A stretch of DNA of 42,719 nucleotides from Trichodelitschia bisporula (lineage: Eukaryota): contig ML996699.1 of the NCBI GenBank assembly GCA_010356995.1, positions 775,697 to 818,415 on the forward strand, given 5' to 3'. The notes under the pieces were generated by a model that did no database searches, was not told the DNA's origin, and saw nothing but the letters and a program-made list of their open reading frames with translations. Shown piece after piece: positions 13,471-41,900 of this stretch. Made by a program: the position numbers and the translations under genes. The stretch's first letter is position 1. Every line of letters starts with the position of its first letter.

Positions 13471-14595
13471 ATGCCCTCTCACGCAGACGCGCTAGCGTCG
13501 TTCATAGATTCTGCTCCTCCAGGCGAAGTAGATCCTGCCCCACCAACCCCGCCATTATAGTACGTCCGGCTCACATGTACACAGCTCTCCAATGTCACAG
13601 CCGGTATATCTCTCCCTAGGAAGCCGGCATACGGCGTATACGGTGCCTACGGATCGGATGTGTGCTGAACGAGAACAGCTCTCAAGAACCTGAGCGTCGA
13701 CGATGCGGGATCGCTCAAGCCCGCGTACAAGAAGTACAACGAGGAACAACTCACCACGGTCAAGCTACCGGGTGGAAGCCAGCTCGTAGGTAGTTGGATA
13801 TATATTACGGGCTAGGGCTGAGACGCGGCAGGTCATTGTCAGCAAGTACAACGAGCTTGAGGATGGACGTTACTACGACATCGAAGCGAGGACGAGCTGG
13901 GCTTTTGACCATGCTACCCAAGTGAGCTTCCTGTGCGGTTTGGTGGATAGGACTGACCGGAGACAGAAAGCCAGCGCGGTCCAAACCTACGTTCACGAGT
14001 CTTCGCACGAGGACTTGGTGTGAGTTCACCCCTTCGCGTCCATGCCCCTCTGACAGCGCTAGCAACTCGCTCTACAAGGCCCTCGCGGCACACGCCTCCG
14101 AGCACTACCCTTCTAGCTCAATAGGCGTGTTCCCCATCGAGAACGACTCTAAGATTGCCCTCGTCACCGTGGCCAACAAGTACAGCCCGAACAACTACTG
14201 GTGCGTACCCTCCTCCACTCTCAGCACATCCTAACAAAGGCAGGAACGGCCGCTGGCGCTCAGTCTACGTCTTCACGCCCGCCCCCTCGCCCTCACTCAC
14301 CGGCTCCATCAACGTCGACGTGCACTACTACGAAGATGGGAATGTGCGGCTGCTGACATCGAAGCCGCTGACCTTCAGCGTGGCCGGTAGCCCCAGCGCT
14401 GCAGACGTGCTGAAGCAGATTGCGCAGGCGGAGCGGCGCTACCAGGAGGAGCTGCACCGTGGCTTCACGTCGCTGAGTGAGAATGCGTTCAAGAGCCTGC
14501 GGCGCCAATTGCCTGTTACGCGCCAGAAGGTGGAGTGGGAGAAGATTGGCGGGTACAGGGTTGGGCAGGACATTGGCGGCGGCAGGCAGAGATAG
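13471..14595 (+). CDS. CAP1: F-actin capping protein alpha subunit (six introns)
   Basis: Spliced MPSHADALASFIDSAPPGE|LSNVTA|ALKNL...YNEEQLTTVKLPG...ANKYSPNNYW|NGRWRS...VDVHYYEDGNVRL...FKSLRRQLPVTRQKVEWEKI. Confidence 0.95.
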
Positions 14596-21011: not shown

Positions 21012-22484
21012 CTATAGCCCCTGCTCCGCCCCCTCTACCTCCAAATCCTCCTCCCGCTTCGCAAACAGCGGCCCTCCAGTGACCGGCAACACGATCGGCA
21101 CGGCGACAGCCAACAATATCGCAAGCGCGGTGACCATAACCGGCCAACCATACTGGACACGAACCCACCCGGCTCCTATGGGACCAATTGCAAACCCTAT
21201 GCCCAGACCCGCATTGGTTAGACCGTAGGCCTGCGCAGCCGCGCCGTCCGGCCCGAATATACCCGGATTACGCTCCTCGATCGATTCAACGACAAGAGCA
21301 ACTTCGGCAGAGAAGGCGGGGAGGGCGACTGCAAAGGAGAGGCCGATCCACACGAGGAGGGTAATTAAAATGATATAGTCCTTTTGCGTATTCTCCGTAA
21401 CCAGGCGCATCAGCAGCAGGCCCGGGACGCCCATTACGAGTCCCGCCACAGCGGGCCACTTGGTGCCGAAGCGATCGGATAGGTTGCCGAAGAAAGGGGA
21501 CAGGAGGGAGGGAACAGTTAGGGCGATGAAGGTGAGCGAGACTTGCATGCTGTTGAAGGCGAAGAGCTCTTTGAGATAGACGGGGAGCACGCCGTCGAAG
21601 CCGACCATGAGTGAGTTCATGGTGCAGAAGCCGAACATGCTCATCAGGAAGCGAGGTGATTGCATGAGAACTACCATGGCGTTGCGCTGGACTGACGGGT
21701 GCGGAGCTTTTCCGAGGAGGGGAGTCGTCTCGGCGACGTTGTTGAAGACGGCGGCTGTCTCGTCGAATGTCTCGGAAGCGATGCTTGGTGTTCGGATCGG
21801 GTCGATGAGGAGGAGCCGGAGCACGATCTCTATGAGGACGAGAAGCACGGCCGGAGCGAAGACGGCGTAGTATCCGGCATGCTCGTATATGATCCCGCCG
21901 ACAATTGGACCAAGGAACCAGCCCAAGCTCAGTGATGTGGTGGTGAATCCCTAAATAGCGTATTTAGGCAAAAGTCCACTAGGAAAGGCAATGGGCATAC
22001 CAGCGCCCATCCAAGCTCACCGGCTTGGGTGAAATGATCGCTCACAATGGCATAGCCAAGAGTGAAGCAGACAGCTGTAGCGAAGCCTTGGAACGCACGA
22101 GCAATAATCATCGCTGCCAGTGATTTGACCAGCATAAATAAGATCGTCGCAGCACCCAGTAAGACGAGACCACAGATGAAAGGCCACCGCCTCGCCCGCC
22201 CGAGTGCATCCGAGACAGCTCCGAACACCACTACAAAGGTCAGATGGCAATACAAAAGCGCATCTACAGCACTTACAAGCGGCAGCGATCATAGAGCCGC
22301 CTAGCACTCCGAGCAGCATTGAGTTCCAGAATTGGATATCAGACTTTGGAACGCCAATGCGCTCCTCCAGCGCGAAAGGCGTCACCGGGACAAGCAACCC
22401 GTACACGAAGACATCTGTGAAGGTAGCGATGCTAACAACGATGAGAGCAAAGTCCTTCGAACTTCGAAGGTCGTATGCCCACAT
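21012..22484 (-). CDS. MFS transporter, vesicular amine transporter (SLC18)-like (introns 22276-22231, 22000-21951)
   Basis: ATFTDVFVYGLLVPVTPFALEER, motif A-like GAVSDALGRARR and GNLSDRFGTK, ARAFQG, GPIVGG and AQAYGLTN, with about 12 hydrophobic segments. Confidence 0.9.
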
Positions 22485-23172
22485 CTTGACGATAACTTGA
22501 GATGGGATGAATGGGGAGGAGCGAAGTATGTCACACAAAGCACGTCAACATCCCAAGTTGACGGACTCTCAACACTGGAACCATGTGCGGGGGGATTAGC
22601 GATTAGTGGGCCTCGCCTGATCCCGAATACGATGCTCGGCTCCGGAGGGCGAGGCACGCAGTAGCGGTGCATCGTGCAGGAACCTCAAGCTCTCCGGACT
22701 TTTCGAGATAGCAGCCGGGCGAATCAACATGCATGGGAGACCGTGTGCGCCTTCGTGCATTGCGCAGCTGGAGTGCGGGATGTCGACTTTTGACATTACT
22801 AGTCGTGCTAGTCTCCGATTTCGCGCCAGCGGCCACCCTGCATAAGAGCGGCTGGGTTGACGATTGAAGATGGGGATGACGATTAGCGAAGATTAGCGAT
22901 AGAGGTCTATCAATGACGCTCGCCGACAGGGCTTAACCATCTCCTGTCATCTCTAGCTTCGGAGCGATGTCCGTCGTCTGTCGTCTCGCTCCACATCAAT
23001 TTTGAGGAATCACTATCACGTGCAAGTACCTCAAGCTGAGTAGCCAATAAGCGCTTAGTGGGGCGAAAGCACTCGGCACGGACCGCATTGCCGAGACCGC
23101 CGGCGGGCACCGTAAACTTCTCGACGACGACAAGCCGAACAGCATCGCGAACCTGTTGTCGACTACAGGGAC

Positions 23173-23596
23173 ATGGCTAAGAAGGGTATGTTTTCTCTTC
23201 GTTGTCTCTAGCTCCGATTCCACTCTCAGTTTGCTAACCGTATCTCCCGCGCAGCGAAATCCCGCACCATCGCGGTGCGCCTCATCTCCATGGCCATGAC
23301 GGGCTTCTTCCGCACCGAAGTGCGTCCCAGAGCTTCGCGGCCGCTGAGCTATCGGAAATACGACCCCGTTGGTGCGTTCAAACTTTCCACTCTTCCCTTG
23401 GGCGTATTGTAGGCAGTTTCAGGCGGTTGGGACGAGCCGTGGGGTCAGAGACGAGCGCGAGACGTCGGAGAGCTCCAATGGACCGAACCTCGCGTGCACA
23501 ACTGGCATTGGCTTTGGGCACTGCGCGGAATAGTTGCTGACTTGCTGGTTAGTGCGGAAACAAGTTCTCTTCCTTGAACAAAAGCGTGGGAAATGA
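23173..23596 (+). CDS. MRPL39: Mitochondrial ribosomal protein bL33m, 57 aa (exons 23173-23185, 23255-23371, 23553-23596)
   Basis: Spliced [57 protein letters not shown], with the L33 signature KYDPVVRK.VLF.E. Absent from the ORF track. Confidence 0.92.
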
Positions 23597-24340
23597 GCGC
23601 CACTCGGTTTACTCGCATAATGTACCTTTTGCTCCCGCTGGCTCTGTTGTCGGTCTCACAGTGGCCTGCACATTGGTTCTAGATCATGGCGTTATCAAGA
23701 CTAAAGGAACGCTCCGATTTGATGGGTTATATGTACTTTTATCGTGCACATGAAGTATCAGTCTCCATGCGTGAGATTCGAGATTCTCTGATGCTGCTCC
23801 GGCCTTGAGATTAGGAGAATCTGCCTTGCGCCTCAGTGCATTTTGCGGGTTGAGTTCGAGGTCACTCGTGTTCTGTTGAGTCATTGATGCATGCACATAA
23901 GCTATCTATGCTTTGAATGTCAATGTTTAACGAACCTGGCAAACGAGCAGCTCCGTAGACTTCTCGTTCCGTCTAAATTTCCACTGCTGCAGCGGCTTCT
24001 AAATCGATCAAGGAGTCAATTCTGCATCGAAATGGCGCAACAAATGGTCGTCCGAGGTGCTACGGAATATATGGCGGAACGGACGTCAGGCTGAACACTG
24101 ATTCGCGCGCCTTGCTTCGTACCTTCCCCTCACCATGCCCAGGTGAACCTAGTTGGGACACCGCGATCCAAATTGTCACATCATTTACTATGTAGGGTTA
24201 TGTGGCTCCACAGTATCCAGACAACCAAACTCGACCTCAAAAACGTTTGTTTGAACCATTTGAGATAGCCACCCGTTTTTGCGACTTCCTACATATTCGA
24301 GAGAAATTGGAATACTCGGCGCAATCATCTTGCCACCGCC

Positions 24341-27193
24341 ATGCCGAAGAAGTCCTCCGCAAGCGGCCCAGAGTCCGAAGGCGTGGTAGTGACTGCCCAG
24401 CAAAGCCGCTTCCACACTGATGCCGTCGATGCGCCTGCCTCAAAAGAGATTCTTGTCAAAACACTGACCGTCAGCGTCGGCCAGCTCGAGCTGCTCAGCA
24501 ACGCCGAGCTCTTCCTTAAGGAAGGCGGACACTATGTCCTCGTGGGGAGAAACGGCACTGGCAAAAGTAGTAAGTAAGCCTTGTTTGCAGTGTATGTCGC
24601 AAGGTACATGGACCGCCTTGTTCGAGACGACGAAGCCAAGAAACTCCGTTCGGTTCGTGTGAAACTCGCATTCCTCGAAGCTGAGGTACAGCTGTACCTC
24701 GCGGGGCCGTTCCTCAACCTCGAGAAATGCGAGTTTCACACGGACCGAACGGAGTTCCTAGGCTTCATCGAATCGAACAAGGGAGTCCACGTCGCCCAAG
24801 TCAAATAGGCGTCAAGGCGCCGGCGTACAGGACGGCGGTACCGTGCTCGGCGGCTTTTCCAAGGGGCATCGCCTCGGCGAGGCAGATCTTATGGAAGGGC
24901 CCGAAGCTCTTCTTGAAGGCCATCGTCTTCCAGCTGAGGTCCAGCGTTGGGCTGTGTTCCTGGGGGCCGTGCTGAGCCAGCCCTGCTGAATCTGCCTTCG
25001 AGCAGAAGTCCGCGAAGTCCTTTGTACTGTCCTTGCTGCGGCCGTCAACGTTCCATTTTGAGAAAGCCAGCTCGAGGCTGACACTGTTAGCGCTGCTTCG
25101 CGCGATTGCCGACAAAAGGGTGCCCGGCATACCGTGGAGCCTTAACGTTTTGCTTCTGGGACAGACGCGCGAGTTAACGCTGGACGAAGAAGTCGACGGG
25201 TTGAGCGTCCAGGATGAAACGGTGCTGGAGCACGTTATGCGCAGCAACAAAGCGCGCGACAGGTACCTCCGCGAGGCTAGCAGTGAGTAAGCAAGTACCG
25301 TGAGCTCCCCGATCTTAAGCAGTAAACAGTCCTGTCTGCGGCCCTGGATCAGCAAAATGACCCAGCTGCTCCCGTGAGAGCGTACCGGCAGCTCAGTCAC
25401 GAGAGATTAGAGCAGAAGCTGCGCGAGAGCCAGCTAATTGCGACTCGGAGAAGCGGTGCTCGCGGGGCAAAGGCGAGAAAGGTCTTGATTGCCGTTGAGG
25501 AGGAATTTGCTGCTTCGCAAGAACGGTATACCACCGCCAGCTGCTTCGGATTCTAGCTGACCTTTAGCCTGACGCGCAATCTGAGTGAAATTGAGCCTAT
25601 GGAGCTTAGTAGTGATACGCAGGCGGCGGCAGAGATGCTTGGTGATATCCATTCCGCCCTGGAGATGGTGAGTCAATGCGAGAGTACCGCCAAACCGCTA
25701 ATAGAGTCAAGATGAACGCTAGCGAGGCCGAAGCAGACGCAAGAGTTGTGCTCCGCGGCCTTGGATTCACAGATGAGCAGATTGACGCCCCAATGTCGAA
25801 GCTCTCCGGCGGCTGGAGGACACGGTGTGATCTGGCCTGTGCCCTCTGCCAGCAAGCAGACGTGTTATTTTTGGACGAGCCGTCAAATTTTCTGGACTTA
25901 CCGGCCATCATCTGGCTGCAGAACTACATCTGCGCACTAGAAAAGACGACAGTGGTTGTTGTAACCCATGACCGTGACTTTGCGGACGCAGTCGCCGATG
26001 AGTTGCTCCTTCTACGACACCAAAAGCTCGAGCATTTCCGTGGCAACCTCTCGCTGTACGAAAGCGAACGCCTGAAGAAGGTCAAGTGGATGACGACGAT
26101 GAAGGAGGCCCAAGAGAAACAGACTAAGCACATGGAACAGACAATCAAGAACAGCATCGACGCGGCGAAGCGAACCGGCGACGACAAGAAACTAAAGCAA
26201 GCTGCATCTCGGCGCAAAAAGCTTGAAGAGCGCACGGGGCTTGAAGTCAACGCCAAAGGTGGACGGTTCAAGCTGAATAGGGACCGGGCGGGCTGGCACC
26301 TGTCGAACAGGGCAGAGATCGAAATCCCGGACTTTGACCCTATCGTGCGGATCAAGATTCCGTGCACACCTCCAGATCTGAGGTTCCCTGGGGCTTTGGT
26401 GTCACTGGAAGGCGTTTGCTTCTCGTATCCGGGACGGAAGAGCCCGGAAATCCTGAAAGACGTCAACCTGACTATTCACCCTGGGGAGCGGGTGGGCATC
26501 TGCGGGCTTAACGGTAGCGGCAAGACCACACTGATATCTCTAATCATTGGGTCCGGCGAGGAAGGCGGTTACACTCCCAAGAAAGGGACGATTACCCGGC
26601 ATTCGCGTGCCAGATTCGCCCGTTTTTCGCAGCCGTCAGTTGAGGAGCTCGAGGCCTTTGGTGTGGCGAACAAGACAGCCACTGCACTCGGTCACCTACT
26701 GGATATCTCAGAAGGCCAGTTAGATGAAAAAGAAGCACGCCAGATATTGGGTTCTCTCGGTCTTCAGGGCCGGGTGGTTTCAGATGTGCCAATATCTGCG
26801 CTGTCCGGTGGCCAAAAGGTCCGGCTCGCGCTCGCAAAGGTGGTGTGGTCTCCGCCGCATCTGCTAGTGTTGGACGAAGTGACCACGCATCTCGACTCGG
26901 ATACCATCTTGGGTTTGATACTCGCGCTGCGAGAGTACGAGGGAGCTCTGCTTGTTGTAACGCACGACCGCTTCTTCATGCGCTGTATCGTGGAGGGGGA
27001 GAGTCCGGCGAAGCGGATCCGGGGAGTAGAGGAGGAGGAGGAGGACTGTGATGAGGAGGAGGACGAAGAGGGGCCAGCACGCAAGGGGGTGGTGTACCGG
27101 CTGTTCAAGAGCCAGCTGAAGCGGCTGGAGGGTGGAATGGACGAGTATACACGGCGGTGCGAGGCACGAGCTAAGCGGGCAGCGCGGGTGTAG
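24341..27193 (+). CDS. ABC-F family soluble double-ATPase (four introns; first intron 24570-25090)
   Basis: NBD1 reads GRNGTGKS|TLL, LSGGWRTR, FLDEPSNFLD. NBD2 reads GLNGSGKTT, LSGGQKVR, LDEVTTHLD. There are no transmembrane domains. Confidence 0.92.
24607..24791. repeat. Inverted repeat with 86-bp arms (24607-24692, 24706-24791)
   Basis: Hand alignment gives 72/86 complementary positions, no gaps, and a 13-nt loop. Confidence 0.92.
24607..25035. mobile_element. Rearranged Ty3/gypsy pol (RT) fragments within ABC-F intron 1
   Basis: Plus strand LNLEKCEFHTDRTEFLGFIESNKGVHV and minus strand LYLSFEECEFHTNRTEFLGFVVSNKAVH match the RT C-terminal KCEF...FLG motif. Minus strand KDFADFCSKADSAGLAQHGPQEH...FGPFHK matches the region preceding RT. 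Confidence 0.85.
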
Positions 27194-27792
27194 CATCTGC
27201 CGTGAGGGTGGTGTTGAAAAGGGGGATCGTTGCGATGATCATAACGCATGTGTATAGCTCTTTGTTCTGCAAGGTGCTTGGATGCTGTAAAAAGTGTACT
27301 GCATCTCCAAGCAAAACTTCAAGAGCCGACGTCGTCATCATGATTCCATCCTCAGGCGTCATCAGGCTGAAATGAGGGTCTAGGCGTTAGGGGCATTCTG
27401 TGGCTGATGGTGTGCATCATGGCGTTGTGGCTTGAACGGGATGTAATTTACGAGAGAAGCTTAAGTGACCCTGTATTGAATGGTTGCTCGTCTGCTCCAT
27501 CTCTCATAGAGCATCGTGCCTCTTCTCCTCTCCTCTTCAATCCCCATCTCTCTTCTTCCCCCAACTCTTTTTCCCTCCTTCCTGTTCTGTATCCTAAGCT
27601 TCGTCCTCTCGTTCTCCATCTTTCTGTGCCATTGGATATGATTTCTGCCCTGCGACTCCCTCGAACCGCTGCTTGCGACAGCTCCAGTGCCGCGGCAGTG
27701 CGCGTTTCGCCGTAAAGCCTTACGCTCCTTCCCACCCAGCTTTCCCCTCACCAACTTATTCTTCCTCAAATTCGGAAGCTCCGTATCTCATC

Positions 27793-29600
27793 ATGGAGGA
27801 CGGGTCCGCTTCGACGCCCCAGTCCGCCTCCGAGCAGCCGACTACAAAGCCGTCTGCAACTAAGGACAGGGCCTGCCCCTTCTGCCACCAGGCCTTCACC
27901 TCCTCCTCCCTCGGCCGCCATCTGGACCTGTATATCAAGGAGAAGAACCCCAAGCCGCCAGACGGCCTTCACGATGTCGACCGAATCCGCCAAATGCGCG
28001 GGAGCATCACCCGCCGCCAGTCTCGCGTCGCAAACCTCAGGCGGACTATGTCCGCCTCGTCGCCGTCCGCTACGCCGTCCAAAATGGAGGATGGCGTCTC
28101 GCGTGCGGCCGCTTCGCCGAATGCGGGGGATCGGTTGACGGAGTCTATGGGGGCTGCTATCAACCGCCCAAGCTGGACCGTCACGGGCGTTATGAATGAC
28201 CTCCCCCCGCGCGCACCGGTGAAGATTGTGCCGGCTGAGCAGGGTGCTGAAGCTTCGAGGCACTTGCAGCTCAAGGCCGGCTTGGACCAGCGGCAGAAGC
28301 TTGCTCAGGAGCTAGATAATGGCAAGGCTGCAGCGCTGGCGCTGAGGGAGGTCGTGAGCAGTCTGCGAGAAGCTAGGTGTGTGTTAGGTGGTTTGCGGTG
28401 CGCTCATAACGGAAGGCTAACTAACTATGCAGCTCGCGATTGACCGGCCGTCCCCTTTTCGATTTCAATCCCTTCACCCTCAATTTCCCCGCCCTCTGCC
28501 TCCACATACTTCCACCACCTACAACCCTCTTCTCTCCAAGTCCGTTCTCGACAGATGATTCCTGGCCCGTGACACTGCCGGGCGAGCAACAATACGCGGC
28601 TATACATCGTGCTGTGCAGGAGCGTATGCAGGCTGCGAATCGGCAAAATGCTGTGAATCCCTTGCCGCCCGACTACGAGTACCAACGACTGACCACTCAT
28701 ATCGACGACTCCTTCCGCCACTGGCAGAACCTCCCAGAGAGCAGGCAGCAGGAGGTATGGGTGCTAGAGATCTTACGCCTCTACGCCGGAGCCAAAGACG
28801 CCCACAAGCAAGCCCAGGACACAATCACAGCCCTACGCTCCGAAATCGCGCAGCTCCAAAAACGCCTCGAAGAGTCCCACGGCGCATGGAACGGCGCCGC
28901 AGACGGGCACGTCCTCGCCCCCTCAGCCTACTCGCAAATCTCCCCCCTCCGCCTATCCAATGAACTCGTCACCGAGCTAGTAAAACAAGACCTAGACATC
29001 CAATACTCCTCCATAGACCGGCTAATGGACAAATGGCGCACCGTCGTGCGCGACGAGCGCAACGCCTCCAACGGCCTCGGCCGCCAACGCCCCCTCCCCG
29101 CCCCCCTCCACCACAACCGGCAACCCTCCGACAACCCCTCCCTCCCCGCGCCCTCAACCCAAACCTCCCGCAACGGCAGTACCGCGAGCGCAATGTCCAT
29201 CACGCGGCCGCAGCACAGCTCCGCAGAGCCAGGCTCGCACGCCGATGGCGACGGCGACGACGACGCAGACGCGGATGCTGATGCTGATGTAGAAGACGCG
29301 CCGGAGCAGGTCGTCCCGCGGCAGGAGTACCGGCGCTTGCGGCCGGCGGTACCGCCTCAGATGGCGCAGATGCAACATGCGCAGCACCGGCATGCGCCAA
29401 AGCCGGATCCGCCGCCGGATCCGCACCAGCATGCCCATGCCCTCCAGCAGCAGTATCATATCCAGCAGCGTCACTTCATGCCCGCAGGTCCGGGCGGGTT
29501 TGGGGGGCATGGCCACATGGGGAGGACGGGACCGCGGGGCGGGCAGCAGATGGAAAAGCTCGAGGGGCCTGTGGCGGGATATTCTGGCGGGAGTCATTGA
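27793..29600 (+). CDS. Conserved fungal hypothetical protein with N-terminal atypical zinc-finger-like motif and coiled coil (intron 28377-28432)
   Basis: KDRACPFCHQAFTSSSLGRHLDLYIKEKNPKPPDGLHDV. Exon 2 contains FDFNPFTLNFPALCLHILPPPTTLFS and WVLEILR, with an acidic and His/Gln-rich tail. Confidence 0.85.
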
Positions 29601-38999: not shown

Positions 39000-41900
39000 T
39001 GCGTGTGCCTGATTTCATCGCGTGCCTTGAAACGCCGTTTCTGTGCTCTATTAGCAGGACAAATAAATTCGGACCAAAAGTGCTCTCACTGACTGGTCTT
39101 CCAAACAGGAGGCTTAAGTCATTTGGGGCAGCTTTGACGTACGCGAGTAAAAGGAAAGTGCATCGCGCAAGCCTCGTCTTCGGGAGTCACTAGGCCCATA
39201 CCCTCCGTCCGTAGATGCACGCCTCCCGATCATAGCCCAATTAAAATATACCGCATACACGATTATCCCTAAAGCAAACCAAACGGAGACGAGAAATTTA
39301 AGCAAAAGTCAGCAATCACCAAGAAAGCACAACATCCAATCCGCCCAGAGTCCGTATTTGAATAACGACCTTTCCTGTGCGAACATCTGGTCAATTAAAG
39401 CGTCAAACCAACGTAACTTGTCAAACATCAATTGAGTGATTTAAATACCGTCCTAATGCACCCATGCCGTATGGGCGTAGAGATTGAAGTTTCATCTCAA
39501 AATATATATAGAGGCTCTGCTAGGCAAAGGCGCAGAGTGTCAAGCGCACGATTTAAAAAAAGGAGGACATGGCGGCTTCAGCCCTTACATGAAAGCAGCG
39601 CAACGAGACACCGAAGGTCCGGCCGGCTAGGTGAATCTATAATGAGCAAATTTATTAATGCATACGGAGGATGTTCATTCATTAGCTGCTTGATCTAAAG
39701 CGACCATAAGTGGAGCGTCAAAGTAGGCCTTAGCTTATTCGCCAAAATTGTAGCGGGTGTGTTAAGTGTCCTATTTTATTAGACGCATGCCCGTGTGTGC
39801 AAGGTGTGTACCCAGGACTTTTTAGGCGTGTCCTATAGCTCCCTTTAGCTGAGCTTCACGTTGGCCCGAAATGTAGGTGTTGTAAGGTTGCATGATTGCA
39901 TTCAATGCATCCCATGCATCAGAAACGCCCGGAACCTAATGAGAAACCTACTATACTCTTGACTCTAATACACTGATGGCCAATTTTGCAACCGACTAAA
40001 GTTGACTACAAATGACTGGTACGTATTTTAGGGAATAGAGGTTAGATTACTGTCTCAACTCGCTACAGTGCGTATTTATCTTCTGATTGGTAGAACAGGT
40101 GGGGGTATGTATGATTTTACGCGCTGAAAAGGAAGAGGTCCATACGCTGGACTTAGGAAGCGATACCAGCTCGCAACGAGGCTAAAATATTGAAAGAATT
40201 TGTCAGCCACTGCTCTAACATTTAGTAACACCGCGGACTAAATACACTGGGGTTACCACTCAATGCCGGGATGCTGTGACCATGAGCCCGGCGGTGTATG
40301 GCAAATAAAGGTCTGTGTAGGCCTTTCATTACTGTAGCCGCCAGGGGGCGTATCAGGCTCTGTGAGCAGGCATCTAAAGACAGCGGCTTCTTTGATAAAC
40401 AAATCGATACGCGCTGATTCTGCTACCGTGGCGAGAAATAAATCCATGCTTGTGGATATGTATATCCCCAAAATAATATGACTGCACTTAGCAGTGTAAT
40501 TAACCACATTTACCGATTGGGAGTGACGCCCTTTCCTGAGTACAGCGCTCCATATCCGCGAGACATCACTTCGTCTGTATTAACGACCTGCGGCAGGGGC
40601 ACACTGGTCAACCATACAATACCCAATAGATCAGTCGCTGTAGCCTCTGGGATCTTTACAGCATGTGCAAGTGCCTTAGCCATCAGTTCAAAGGCTAAGC
40701 TTCCGAGGGTGTGCGCATCCGCGGGTGTAGATAATTGCCTATCAGCAAACGAGGGACACCTTAAGGCCTATAATAGCTTTGATCGTCTTCCCGCCTCAAA
40801 CCCTGAGGCGTTAATTACTTGGCTGCCACTAGAACTACACCCCGGGTTACTAGAACCACACCCCAAATCATTTTTATAGCATCTCCTTAACATACCTTTA
40901 ATATAATCAGAGCAGTAAATACGGCGTTCCCATTTTTGAGTTTTTCCAAGGCTAGAACCAAGGGAGTTGAGCACGGTGTAACAGCATAAACCCTTAGTAA
41001 CGCAAGTTGATGTGCGCAATGTTGCAGCTGAGTGAGAGGCAGACGTGGAAACAGGGAAGGATAGACTTTGGGCTATGTGTTGGTGCTTAGAGACTCAAGT
41101 TCATAAGCGGATTGATCTAATGAGAGTTCACGTAGTAGCTAGGGGCTGGAATTTTGTTGATGAGATGTAGATTGGCCATGAGCCGTTCTGCAACAGGTGG
41201 ATAATTACTATATATCACCTACGCGCCCGTTTTAAGGACCCGGCTAACGCAGTCGGGGTCGGTGGTGCCCCAGGTCTTGGGCGGTGAGAAGTCACTCAGG
41301 CTTATTTGGGATTTTTTATGTGTTCAATCGTGGACCACTCATAATAGCGAATGGAAACTTATCCGTGGAGGTTAAGAAATTTGGGCCACATACCCTGCGT
41401 ACTCGCTCTAATTGATGAACGTTCGTTATAAGTGCTCTATGGAGGTTCCGAAATAGGTGGTTTTTCTTGAAAAAGTAAGGTCTGTTACAGGCAGTTGACG
41501 GCATGCCGTAATTTTCTATGAATGCGTGGTGAGTCAGACTCACTCTATCTACGCCCCCCCCCCCACCTCCTCAAACAAAATCCTAACATCTTCCGCGATG
41601 GGATTGGGGTAAGATTAACGCCAAAATCCTTCGTTTGATTATCCCTTATACAGCCCAGGTACTGGCCCAGGTACACGCCCAGGTACTCGTGCCCCACTTT
41701 TCCGCTATAATGAACCAGTTGAAAAGCTAGAGTTTGTTGCAGAAATGGGAAATCTGAACAGAACCAAATTCAAGCTCTTTGATTGGTCCATGATAGCGGA
41801 AAGTAGGCGACGAGTACCTGGACATGTACGTGGGCCATCACCAGGGCCCTACACGGGATACAGCTCTCGGGAAATAAAGTACTTTTTTCAATGCACATTA

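Follow-up and report, generated by a model that had tools for sequence, protein, structure and literature searches.

A probable decaying fold-back scar of retroelement sequence in a spliced intron of an ABC-F-type gene of Trichodelitschia bisporula

How fungi first recognize retrotransposons and keep a memory of them is not well settled, and natural hairpin silencers built from an invader's own sequence have been shown in maize and tomato. In tomato, intronic and intergenic pararetroviral inverted repeats termed TSAs (PMC9868043) place an inverted repeat of an invader bearing a reverse transcriptase (RT) in a spliced intron, where it is co-transcribed with the host gene; as described there, siRNAs have been mapped to these repeats, cognate elements exist, and the repeats range upward from a few hundred bases. 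The maize locus Mu killer (PMC3440606) and composite Ac insertions (bioRxiv 10.1101/2020.01.07.897926) are presented as inverted duplications of transposon coding sequence under host-gene transcription, derived from DNA transposons that have live cognates, with genetically shown silencing and, in Mu killer, arms of about 1300 bp, although for Mu killer a hairpin produced by read-through is contested in PMC3440606. The siteRNAs of Xenopus (PMC3875865) are linked to intronic transposon remnants in coding genes as possible small-RNA sources, and are defined by small-RNA clusters together with low host-gene expression. Breaks in Saccharomyces cerevisiae, according to PMC11724301, acquire inverted and multi-fragment insertions, transposon DNA included, among them short inverted duplications that show microhomology and measure from 2 to about 150 bp.

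The locus described here, a 521-nt intron of an ABC-F-type gene of T. bisporula, a fungus whose intron signals and relatives suggest a filamentous ascomycete, lies in a window of 42,719 nucleotides (the whole stretch of DNA that was analysed) on contig C13 of a genome of 25.8 Mb in 44 contigs. Like the TSAs it combines an RT-bearing invader, an inverted repeat in a spliced intron and presumed co-transcription with the host gene, and it differs from them in its fungal gypsy source, in a stem of 87 bp at 84% identity and in that a target was not found. With the TSAs and Mu killer it shares the inverted duplication of element sequence and, going by domain matches, a genome with RNAi machinery; no close cognate was found in the assembly, which may be incomplete. 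Because it lacks a matching target, a defining feature of those systems, and would be a putative source of siRNAs and of silencing, the intron is not classed with them. With the siteRNAs it has in common a transposon remnant in an intron of a coding gene, a possible small-RNA source. The yeast insertions (PMC11724301) are fresh laboratory repair products, whereas the present repeat is old (Jukes-Cantor distance between its arms 0.18) and its junctions are not certainly readable. With fungal Ty3/gypsy pol proteins the arms share the end of the RT domain, and their own source family was not found. A literature search over titles and abstract openings found no fungal intronic retrotransposon hairpin silencer.

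Table 1. Coordinates of the intron, its host gene and three further retroelement-linked fold-backs (positions of the window except where a locus is named).
Feature	Position	Strand	Basis or remark
Host gene, ABC-F-type	24341-27193	+	five exons
Exon 1 (coding part) of the host gene	24341-24569	+	joint to 25091 in X3 and X4; open frame, orthologs
Intron, 521 nt, phase 1, GTAAGT...GCTGAC...TAG	24570-25090	+	RNA-type joints; ortholog L036
Left arm: gypsy RT segment, antisense to host gene	24606-24692	-	inverted-repeat search, blastx, hhalign
Stem core, 31 bp, one G-U: 24642-24672 pairs with 24726-24756	24642-24756	+	fold, arm alignment
Perfect palindrome, 18 nt, at turning point	24683-24700	.	read from sequence; small stem in fold
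Right arm: same gypsy RT segment, sense; open frame to 24805	24706-24792	+	inverted-repeat search, blastx, hhalign
Possible decayed gypsy pre-RT linker, antisense (weak)	24846-25058	-	blastx E 0.019, hhalign E 0.053, profile controls
Branch site GCTGAC (25077-25082; A at 25081) and 3' splice site	25077-25090	+	sequence, RNA-type joint
Exons 2-5 of the host gene: 25091-25282, 25330-25525, 25568-25667, 25712-27193	25091-27193	+	RNA-type joints, Pfam, orthologs
L086, gypsy RT relic fold-back; both 175-nt arms gypsy RT, about 77% identical	L086:4657-5014, G000:C20 about 13,656-14,013	unoriented	
L087, copia RT relic fold-back; 90-nt arms, 71% identical; RT match covers left arm	L087:4992-5175, G000:C3 about 1,786,491-1,786,674		
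L088, 92-nt inverted arms; short copia RT relic mostly in loop	L088:4662-4956, G000:C22 about 89,661-89,955		

The host gene (Table 1) keeps a frame of 732 codons with no internal stop after excision of its four RNA-defined introns, and its last exon has two stretches of ABC_tran and an ABC_tran_Xtn in Pfam, a domain content that fits an ABC-F assignment. Contigs of two RNA-type runs, X3 and X4, which come from one sample of one study and whose RNA nature is a guess, carry GT-AG joints for all four introns. The joint from 24569 to 25091 is supported in both runs, and the first intron, for which the preliminary description had given this length and these splice signals, shows the GT-AG removal with a branch site that marks a spliceosomal intron. 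The remaining introns have 47, 42, and 44 nt, and the first is thus ten times as long as its neighbours. Among 12 ortholog loci from metagenomes, none of which matches the inserted sequence, 9 had both flanking exons matched; one of these (L036) has a 55-nt intron at the identical site and phase and the position is empty in the other 8. The simplest reading would be an old short intron enlarged by about 465 nt, on the strength of a single ortholog and with parallel gain possible. In the orthologs matched at the N terminus (L028-L038), the ..SKE codons of exon 1 appear to be followed by a short intron, which is missing from the window gene. Upstream, a small plus-strand gene at 23170-23590 of the window, whose peptide we take to resemble mitochondrial ribosomal protein L33, has two spliced introns of 69 and 181 nt, the second also long for this genome.

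The insert is recognizably of retroelement origin in its arms. Both match the end of the gypsy RT domain when aligned by hhalign with 30 pol proteins (probabilities 91.7 and 80.4, E 7.7e-7 and 1.3e-5), by blastx at E<1e-3 they match 30 and 18 of 120 pol proteins, and their peptides are 33-52% identical to the same region of fungal Ty3/gypsy (chromovirus-type) pol proteins, the five gypsy loci resident in the genome included. The claim that the intron is filled with Ty3/gypsy pol pieces holds to this extent for the arms and much less so for the antisense pre-RT piece of about 220 nt. The stretch 24846-25058 aligns weakly to the linker that precedes RT (the blastx value in Table 1 refers to 120 proteins), another frame of the same DNA reaches an hhalign E of 0.22, and among 2000 shuffles 4 reach its pre-RT score, as do 14 of the 2832 tiles of the window; it gave no match in the genome, Pfam, PDB, the protein set or the ESM Atlas, and a gypsy pre-RT linker is a plausible identity for it. 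The locus lacks what defines an LTR retrotransposon: its pol matches are RT-end pieces, with no YxDD core, RNase H or integrase, no long direct repeat of the LTR kind was found in 22000-29000, and blastx of the window at E<=1e-3 returned no gag, integrase or other pol match, a search that must be called insensitive because it also missed the arms. Within these searches the absence of LTR, gag and integrase noted earlier was upheld. The GC-richness reported for the sequence is likewise seen (GC 57%), and RIP was rejected, there being no RIP-type skew (TpA/ApT 1.0); DNA-methylase matches are present in the genome. A candidate YxDD-motif remnant at 24581-24616, whose Tyr-Met-Asp stands 40 codons before the motif where 126 of 145 pol cases have 36, found no support either: 5.6% of random 8-mers score equally upstream, and reading the arm's end in antisense yields the same triplet.

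The arms are 87 nt each and align without a gap, with 73 identical positions, which is the previously given count of 72 paired in 86 extended by one base; the 31-bp core with its single G-U was found as described, and the longest pure Watson-Crick run in the stem is 17 bp. The predicted hairpin has a minimum free energy (MFE) of -127.9 kcal/mol (z -16.5; as good in 0 of 200 shuffles) and the corresponding minus strand one of -149.8, while the other 270 nt of the intron fold no better than shuffles (z -0.2). At the turning point, the right half of the palindrome (24691-24700) directly repeats, at 8 of 10 positions, the sequence with which the right arm opens (24706-24715). A tip palindrome together with such a direct repeat is the kind of trace left by template switching, a mechanism we infer from these two features. 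No Rfam family reached the gathering score in 24400-25300, and the hairpin does not resemble a MITE, its arms being RT coding sequence and single-copy. A second tight fold-back in the window (41640-41860) has arms of about 107 nt that are 75% identical, in AT-richer DNA with no gypsy pol match.

The differences between the arms bear on how the repeat arose. There are 14, spread over codon positions as 4/5/5, and 3 of the 12 differing codons are synonymous, compared with a neutral expectation of 0.21-0.31; three residues of the left arm and two of the right occur hardly or not at all in 118 pol segments. Given these codon positions and the synonymous count, a single duplication followed by independent decay of both arms with a neutral-looking spectrum would fit better than two working paralogues, and an origin as two working paralogues placed head to head was rejected on the synonymous count. 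The arms show no sign of kept pairing on the pre-mRNA strand. Here one of the 14 differences yields a G-U and 13 break a pair, the opposite of what selection for a pre-mRNA hairpin predicts. Eight of the nine transitions give A-C on the pre-mRNA strand and G-U on the opposite one (two-sided p 0.039, post hoc and on nine sites), and the five transversion mismatches are unpaired on both.

The full-length cognate element that the preliminary description had proposed to look for was not found. With either the intron or the right arm as query, DNA searches of the genome returned the locus itself only, a missing DNA match being no proof of rarity. An RVT_1 profile search gave 16 matches, five of gypsy type and four of them in long open frames; these resident gypsy loci are 71-74% alike to the arms over 53-69 nt of DNA and 33-50% identical to the arm peptides, and one of them shares a 17/18-nt run with the stem in a conserved RT motif. 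Among the 16 loci the best 21-mer has 3 mismatches (contig C33) and the next 4, one 22-mer of the core taken genome-wide with at most 3 mismatches matches the two arms only, and nothing among the RNase H and copia loci is closer to the arms. Peptides P0002 and P0001, compared with longer proteins, gave 0 of 48 and 0 of 4 candidates, which is weak evidence; the 3 matches of an exhaustive P0002 search were rejected, all being repetitive proteins unrelated to pol, as was the one 13-residue match of a viral-contig scan, which has no likeness to the intron. The ESM Atlas gave no match at >=0.9, and Pfam and PDB searches for the source family were blank or at chance level. Two DNA runs searched at 80% likeness added no further contig on the arms, where contigs show presence and not absence and the runs may be the window's own source, and no sequence difference appeared at the locus across four runs. 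Collapsed repeats might be missing from the assembly.

The pre-mRNA must cross both arms because the hairpin sits in a spliced intron, and intron-holding contigs are indeed present in X3 and X4, these contigs being unstranded. Their depths of 21.5 and 57.3 stand beside 290-302 and 750-1009 for spliced contigs; depth cannot rank gene parts and no retention rate was derived from it. The depth table has contig gaps over 24570-24661 in X3 and over 24628-24745 in X4, which prove nothing. One X4 contig joins 24627 to 24746 with 3 nt of microhomology, skipping 118 nt of the hairpin; a second intron was rejected, as none of the joint's four cut positions gives GT-AG on one strand or the other, and it probably reflects slippage of the reverse transcriptase on the hairpin (PMC8240250). 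In Cryptococcus, siRNAs can arise when splicing stalls (cited in PMC6643885), and the present data give no sign of stalled splicing at this intron. RNAi genes are indicated by domain matches to 2 Dicer, 3 Piwi, and 6 RdRP, the last at 3 loci.

Retroelement fold-backs recur elsewhere in the genome. In 49 rows from RVT_1, RT_RNaseH, and RVT_2 profile searches, some of which overlap, weak retro relics lay in tight fold-backs in 3 cases against 0.2 expected (p 0.001), which is the fair figure; counting 3 of 12 re-fetched weak relic loci instead gives p 1.5e-5, on a set chosen post hoc that omits six other weak or short rows. As background, 600 kb of DNA taken without selection contain five tight fold-backs (70-80% identity), none of which gave a match when compared with gypsy pol only, and from this a 300-nt target has a 0.4% chance of overlapping one. 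L088 is the looser of the three cases because its RT match lies mostly in the loop. Together with the intron these make four retro-linked fold-backs, in which plus-strand G-U and A-C mismatches number 1 and 8 (intron), 6 and 20 (L086), 10 and 3 (L087), and 4 and 7 (L088); singly, L086 is lopsided (p 0.009), L087 less clearly so (p 0.09) and L088 not. The four are heterogeneous by chi-square (p 0.0015; p 0.007 without the intron), whereas seven other tight repeats taken as control are balanced (p 0.76). L087 is flanked by two genes with FAD-binding and U1 zinc finger Pfam matches, both on the minus strand, there the A-C-rich one, just as the host-gene strand is the A-C-rich one in the intron; the neighbours of L088 are both minus too, with a slight excess in the opposite direction. 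The strand bias may reflect equally well RNA selection on the opposite strand, selection against pairing of host RNA, or strand-biased deamination. Several other repeats were seen: about 200 nt upstream of the L086 fold-back on the plus strand stands an intron-like GTAAGT...GCTAAC..AG; the copia loci L066 and L072 (G000:C24, about 102,600-111,100) carry long inverted duplications of 379 nt at 93% and 527 nt at 95%, in which G-U and A-C are balanced; near gypsy and copia loci (L054, L075, L077, L078) a repeat that starts with TGTT and is about 175 nt long recurs in inverted pairs and looks like an LTR or solo-LTR family; and in L090:4100-5400 (G000:C9, about 516,100-517,350) two decayed pieces of gypsy RNase H share one orientation at a spacing of about 1 kb, with no inverted repeat.

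The intron probably holds the decaying fold-back scar of a retroelement fragment that landed in an old short intron and is still spliced out. A fragment of a Ty3/gypsy family no longer found in the assembly would have entered the ABC-F intron, by capture of retro-cDNA at a break or by deletion of most of an inserted element, and about 87 bp would have been copied in reverse orientation by a single fold-back or template switch, as the tip palindrome and short direct repeat suggest. With the splice signals remaining at its ends the insert would be excised and the gene work, which the contigs show at their level, and each arm would then have accumulated its own mutations; the pre-mRNA hairpin is computed to form, nothing points to its pairing having been maintained, and small RNAs cut from it, if any, would lack a closely matching element as target. 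Splicing at the normal sites, the intact frame, the 55-nt intron of L036, the single-copy locus and the existence of background fold-backs are consistent with such a scar. A plain random scar does not predict the enrichment of relics in tight fold-backs, although a mere tendency of retro-cDNA to fold back may account for it; nor does neutral symmetric decay predict the strand-lopsided transition mismatches (p 0.0015), and the lack of any indel in the 87-bp arms and a cognate that is possibly missing from the assembly count against it as well. The same arms may instead be a spent silencer, an initially near-perfect fold-back that matched an active gypsy family, fed Dicer through the host pre-mRNA, helped to extinguish that family and decayed once its target was lost. 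This is unlikely: its anatomy is like that of inverted duplications driven from an intron or by a host promoter (PMC9868043, PMC3440606), RNAi genes are present, retro relics are enriched for fold-backs and success would leave no cognate family, but today it would look identical to a neutral scar and hence is not favoured, old families vanish without a silencer too, and the 87-bp stem is short beside the arms reported for Mu killer and tomato.

The lopsided mismatches lend themselves to two further accounts. A hairpin RNA from the opposite strand, as one of several retroelement small-RNA sources, would fold better than the pre-mRNA, in keeping with the lower MFE of the minus strand, and would have been kept paired, in keeping with the eight transitions that give G-U there and with the lopsided spectra of L086 and L087; these are post hoc observations on small numbers, the antisense transcript is putative, strand-biased deamination or selection against host-RNA pairing gives equal ratios, the transversion mismatches persist on both strands, L088 is not lopsided and neither strand has a matching target, so that this account is decidedly improbable. 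Its wider form, in which the intron is one of the scattered retrotransposon-coding fold-backs (others at least near 13,650 on G000:C20 and near 1,786,500 on C3) that the fungus would keep as sources of hairpin RNA, thereby recording earlier invasions by gypsy and copia in a dispersed and heritable way, with lopsided G-U as the mark of RNA selection and the working strand antisense to the host, is quite unlikely. The preliminary description had seen in the locus an active heritable silencer released by each host transcript and acting on present gypsy elements. The gypsy RT origin, the hairpin, its probable transcription in the host pre-mRNA and the RNAi genes on which that proposal drew all stand, and the stem covers the conserved motif shared with one resident element; a paired core of 31 bp suffices for cutting by Dicer. 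The proposed function is not supported, and is very unlikely: no cognate was found, the best 21-mers are mismatched as given above, 13 of 14 differences break pairs, the stem is short at 87 bp, the supposed pre-RT piece is unmatched in the genome, and fungal hairpin small-RNA loci are, in the re-analysis of PMC9757828, 'very rarely' wholly intronic. Of the outcomes that the same description had named as speaking against its silencer, the data lean to two, the want of a cognate of enough identity and a neutral scar. A hairpin kept as a splicing aid, which would tuck away 187 nt of the overlong intron to bring donor and branch site together in the manner of yeast zipper stems, is likewise only remotely probable. 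The intron is spliced in spite of its tenfold length, and zipper and other long stems are described as common in long yeast introns (PMC12350175), but the computed path from donor to branch site (15.9 steps) is no shorter than in 25 shuffles (11.6 +/- 4.0), so there is no gain in proximity and none of the shortening beyond chance by which a zipper stem is recognized; the rest of the intron folds at shuffle level and the mismatches favour broken pairs on the pre-mRNA strand.

What gives the finding most of its weight is that fold-backs of retroelement sequence recur and show a strand bias without explanation. If no small RNAs arise from them, the intron would be a tidy case of a 55-nt intron growing tenfold by captured and folded-back retroelement DNA, and the excess of fold-backs among retro relics would suggest a bias in repair or in reverse transcription that merits measurement. 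If the fold-backs do yield small RNAs, they would offer a small, deletable test of the hairpin-memory idea in a fungus.
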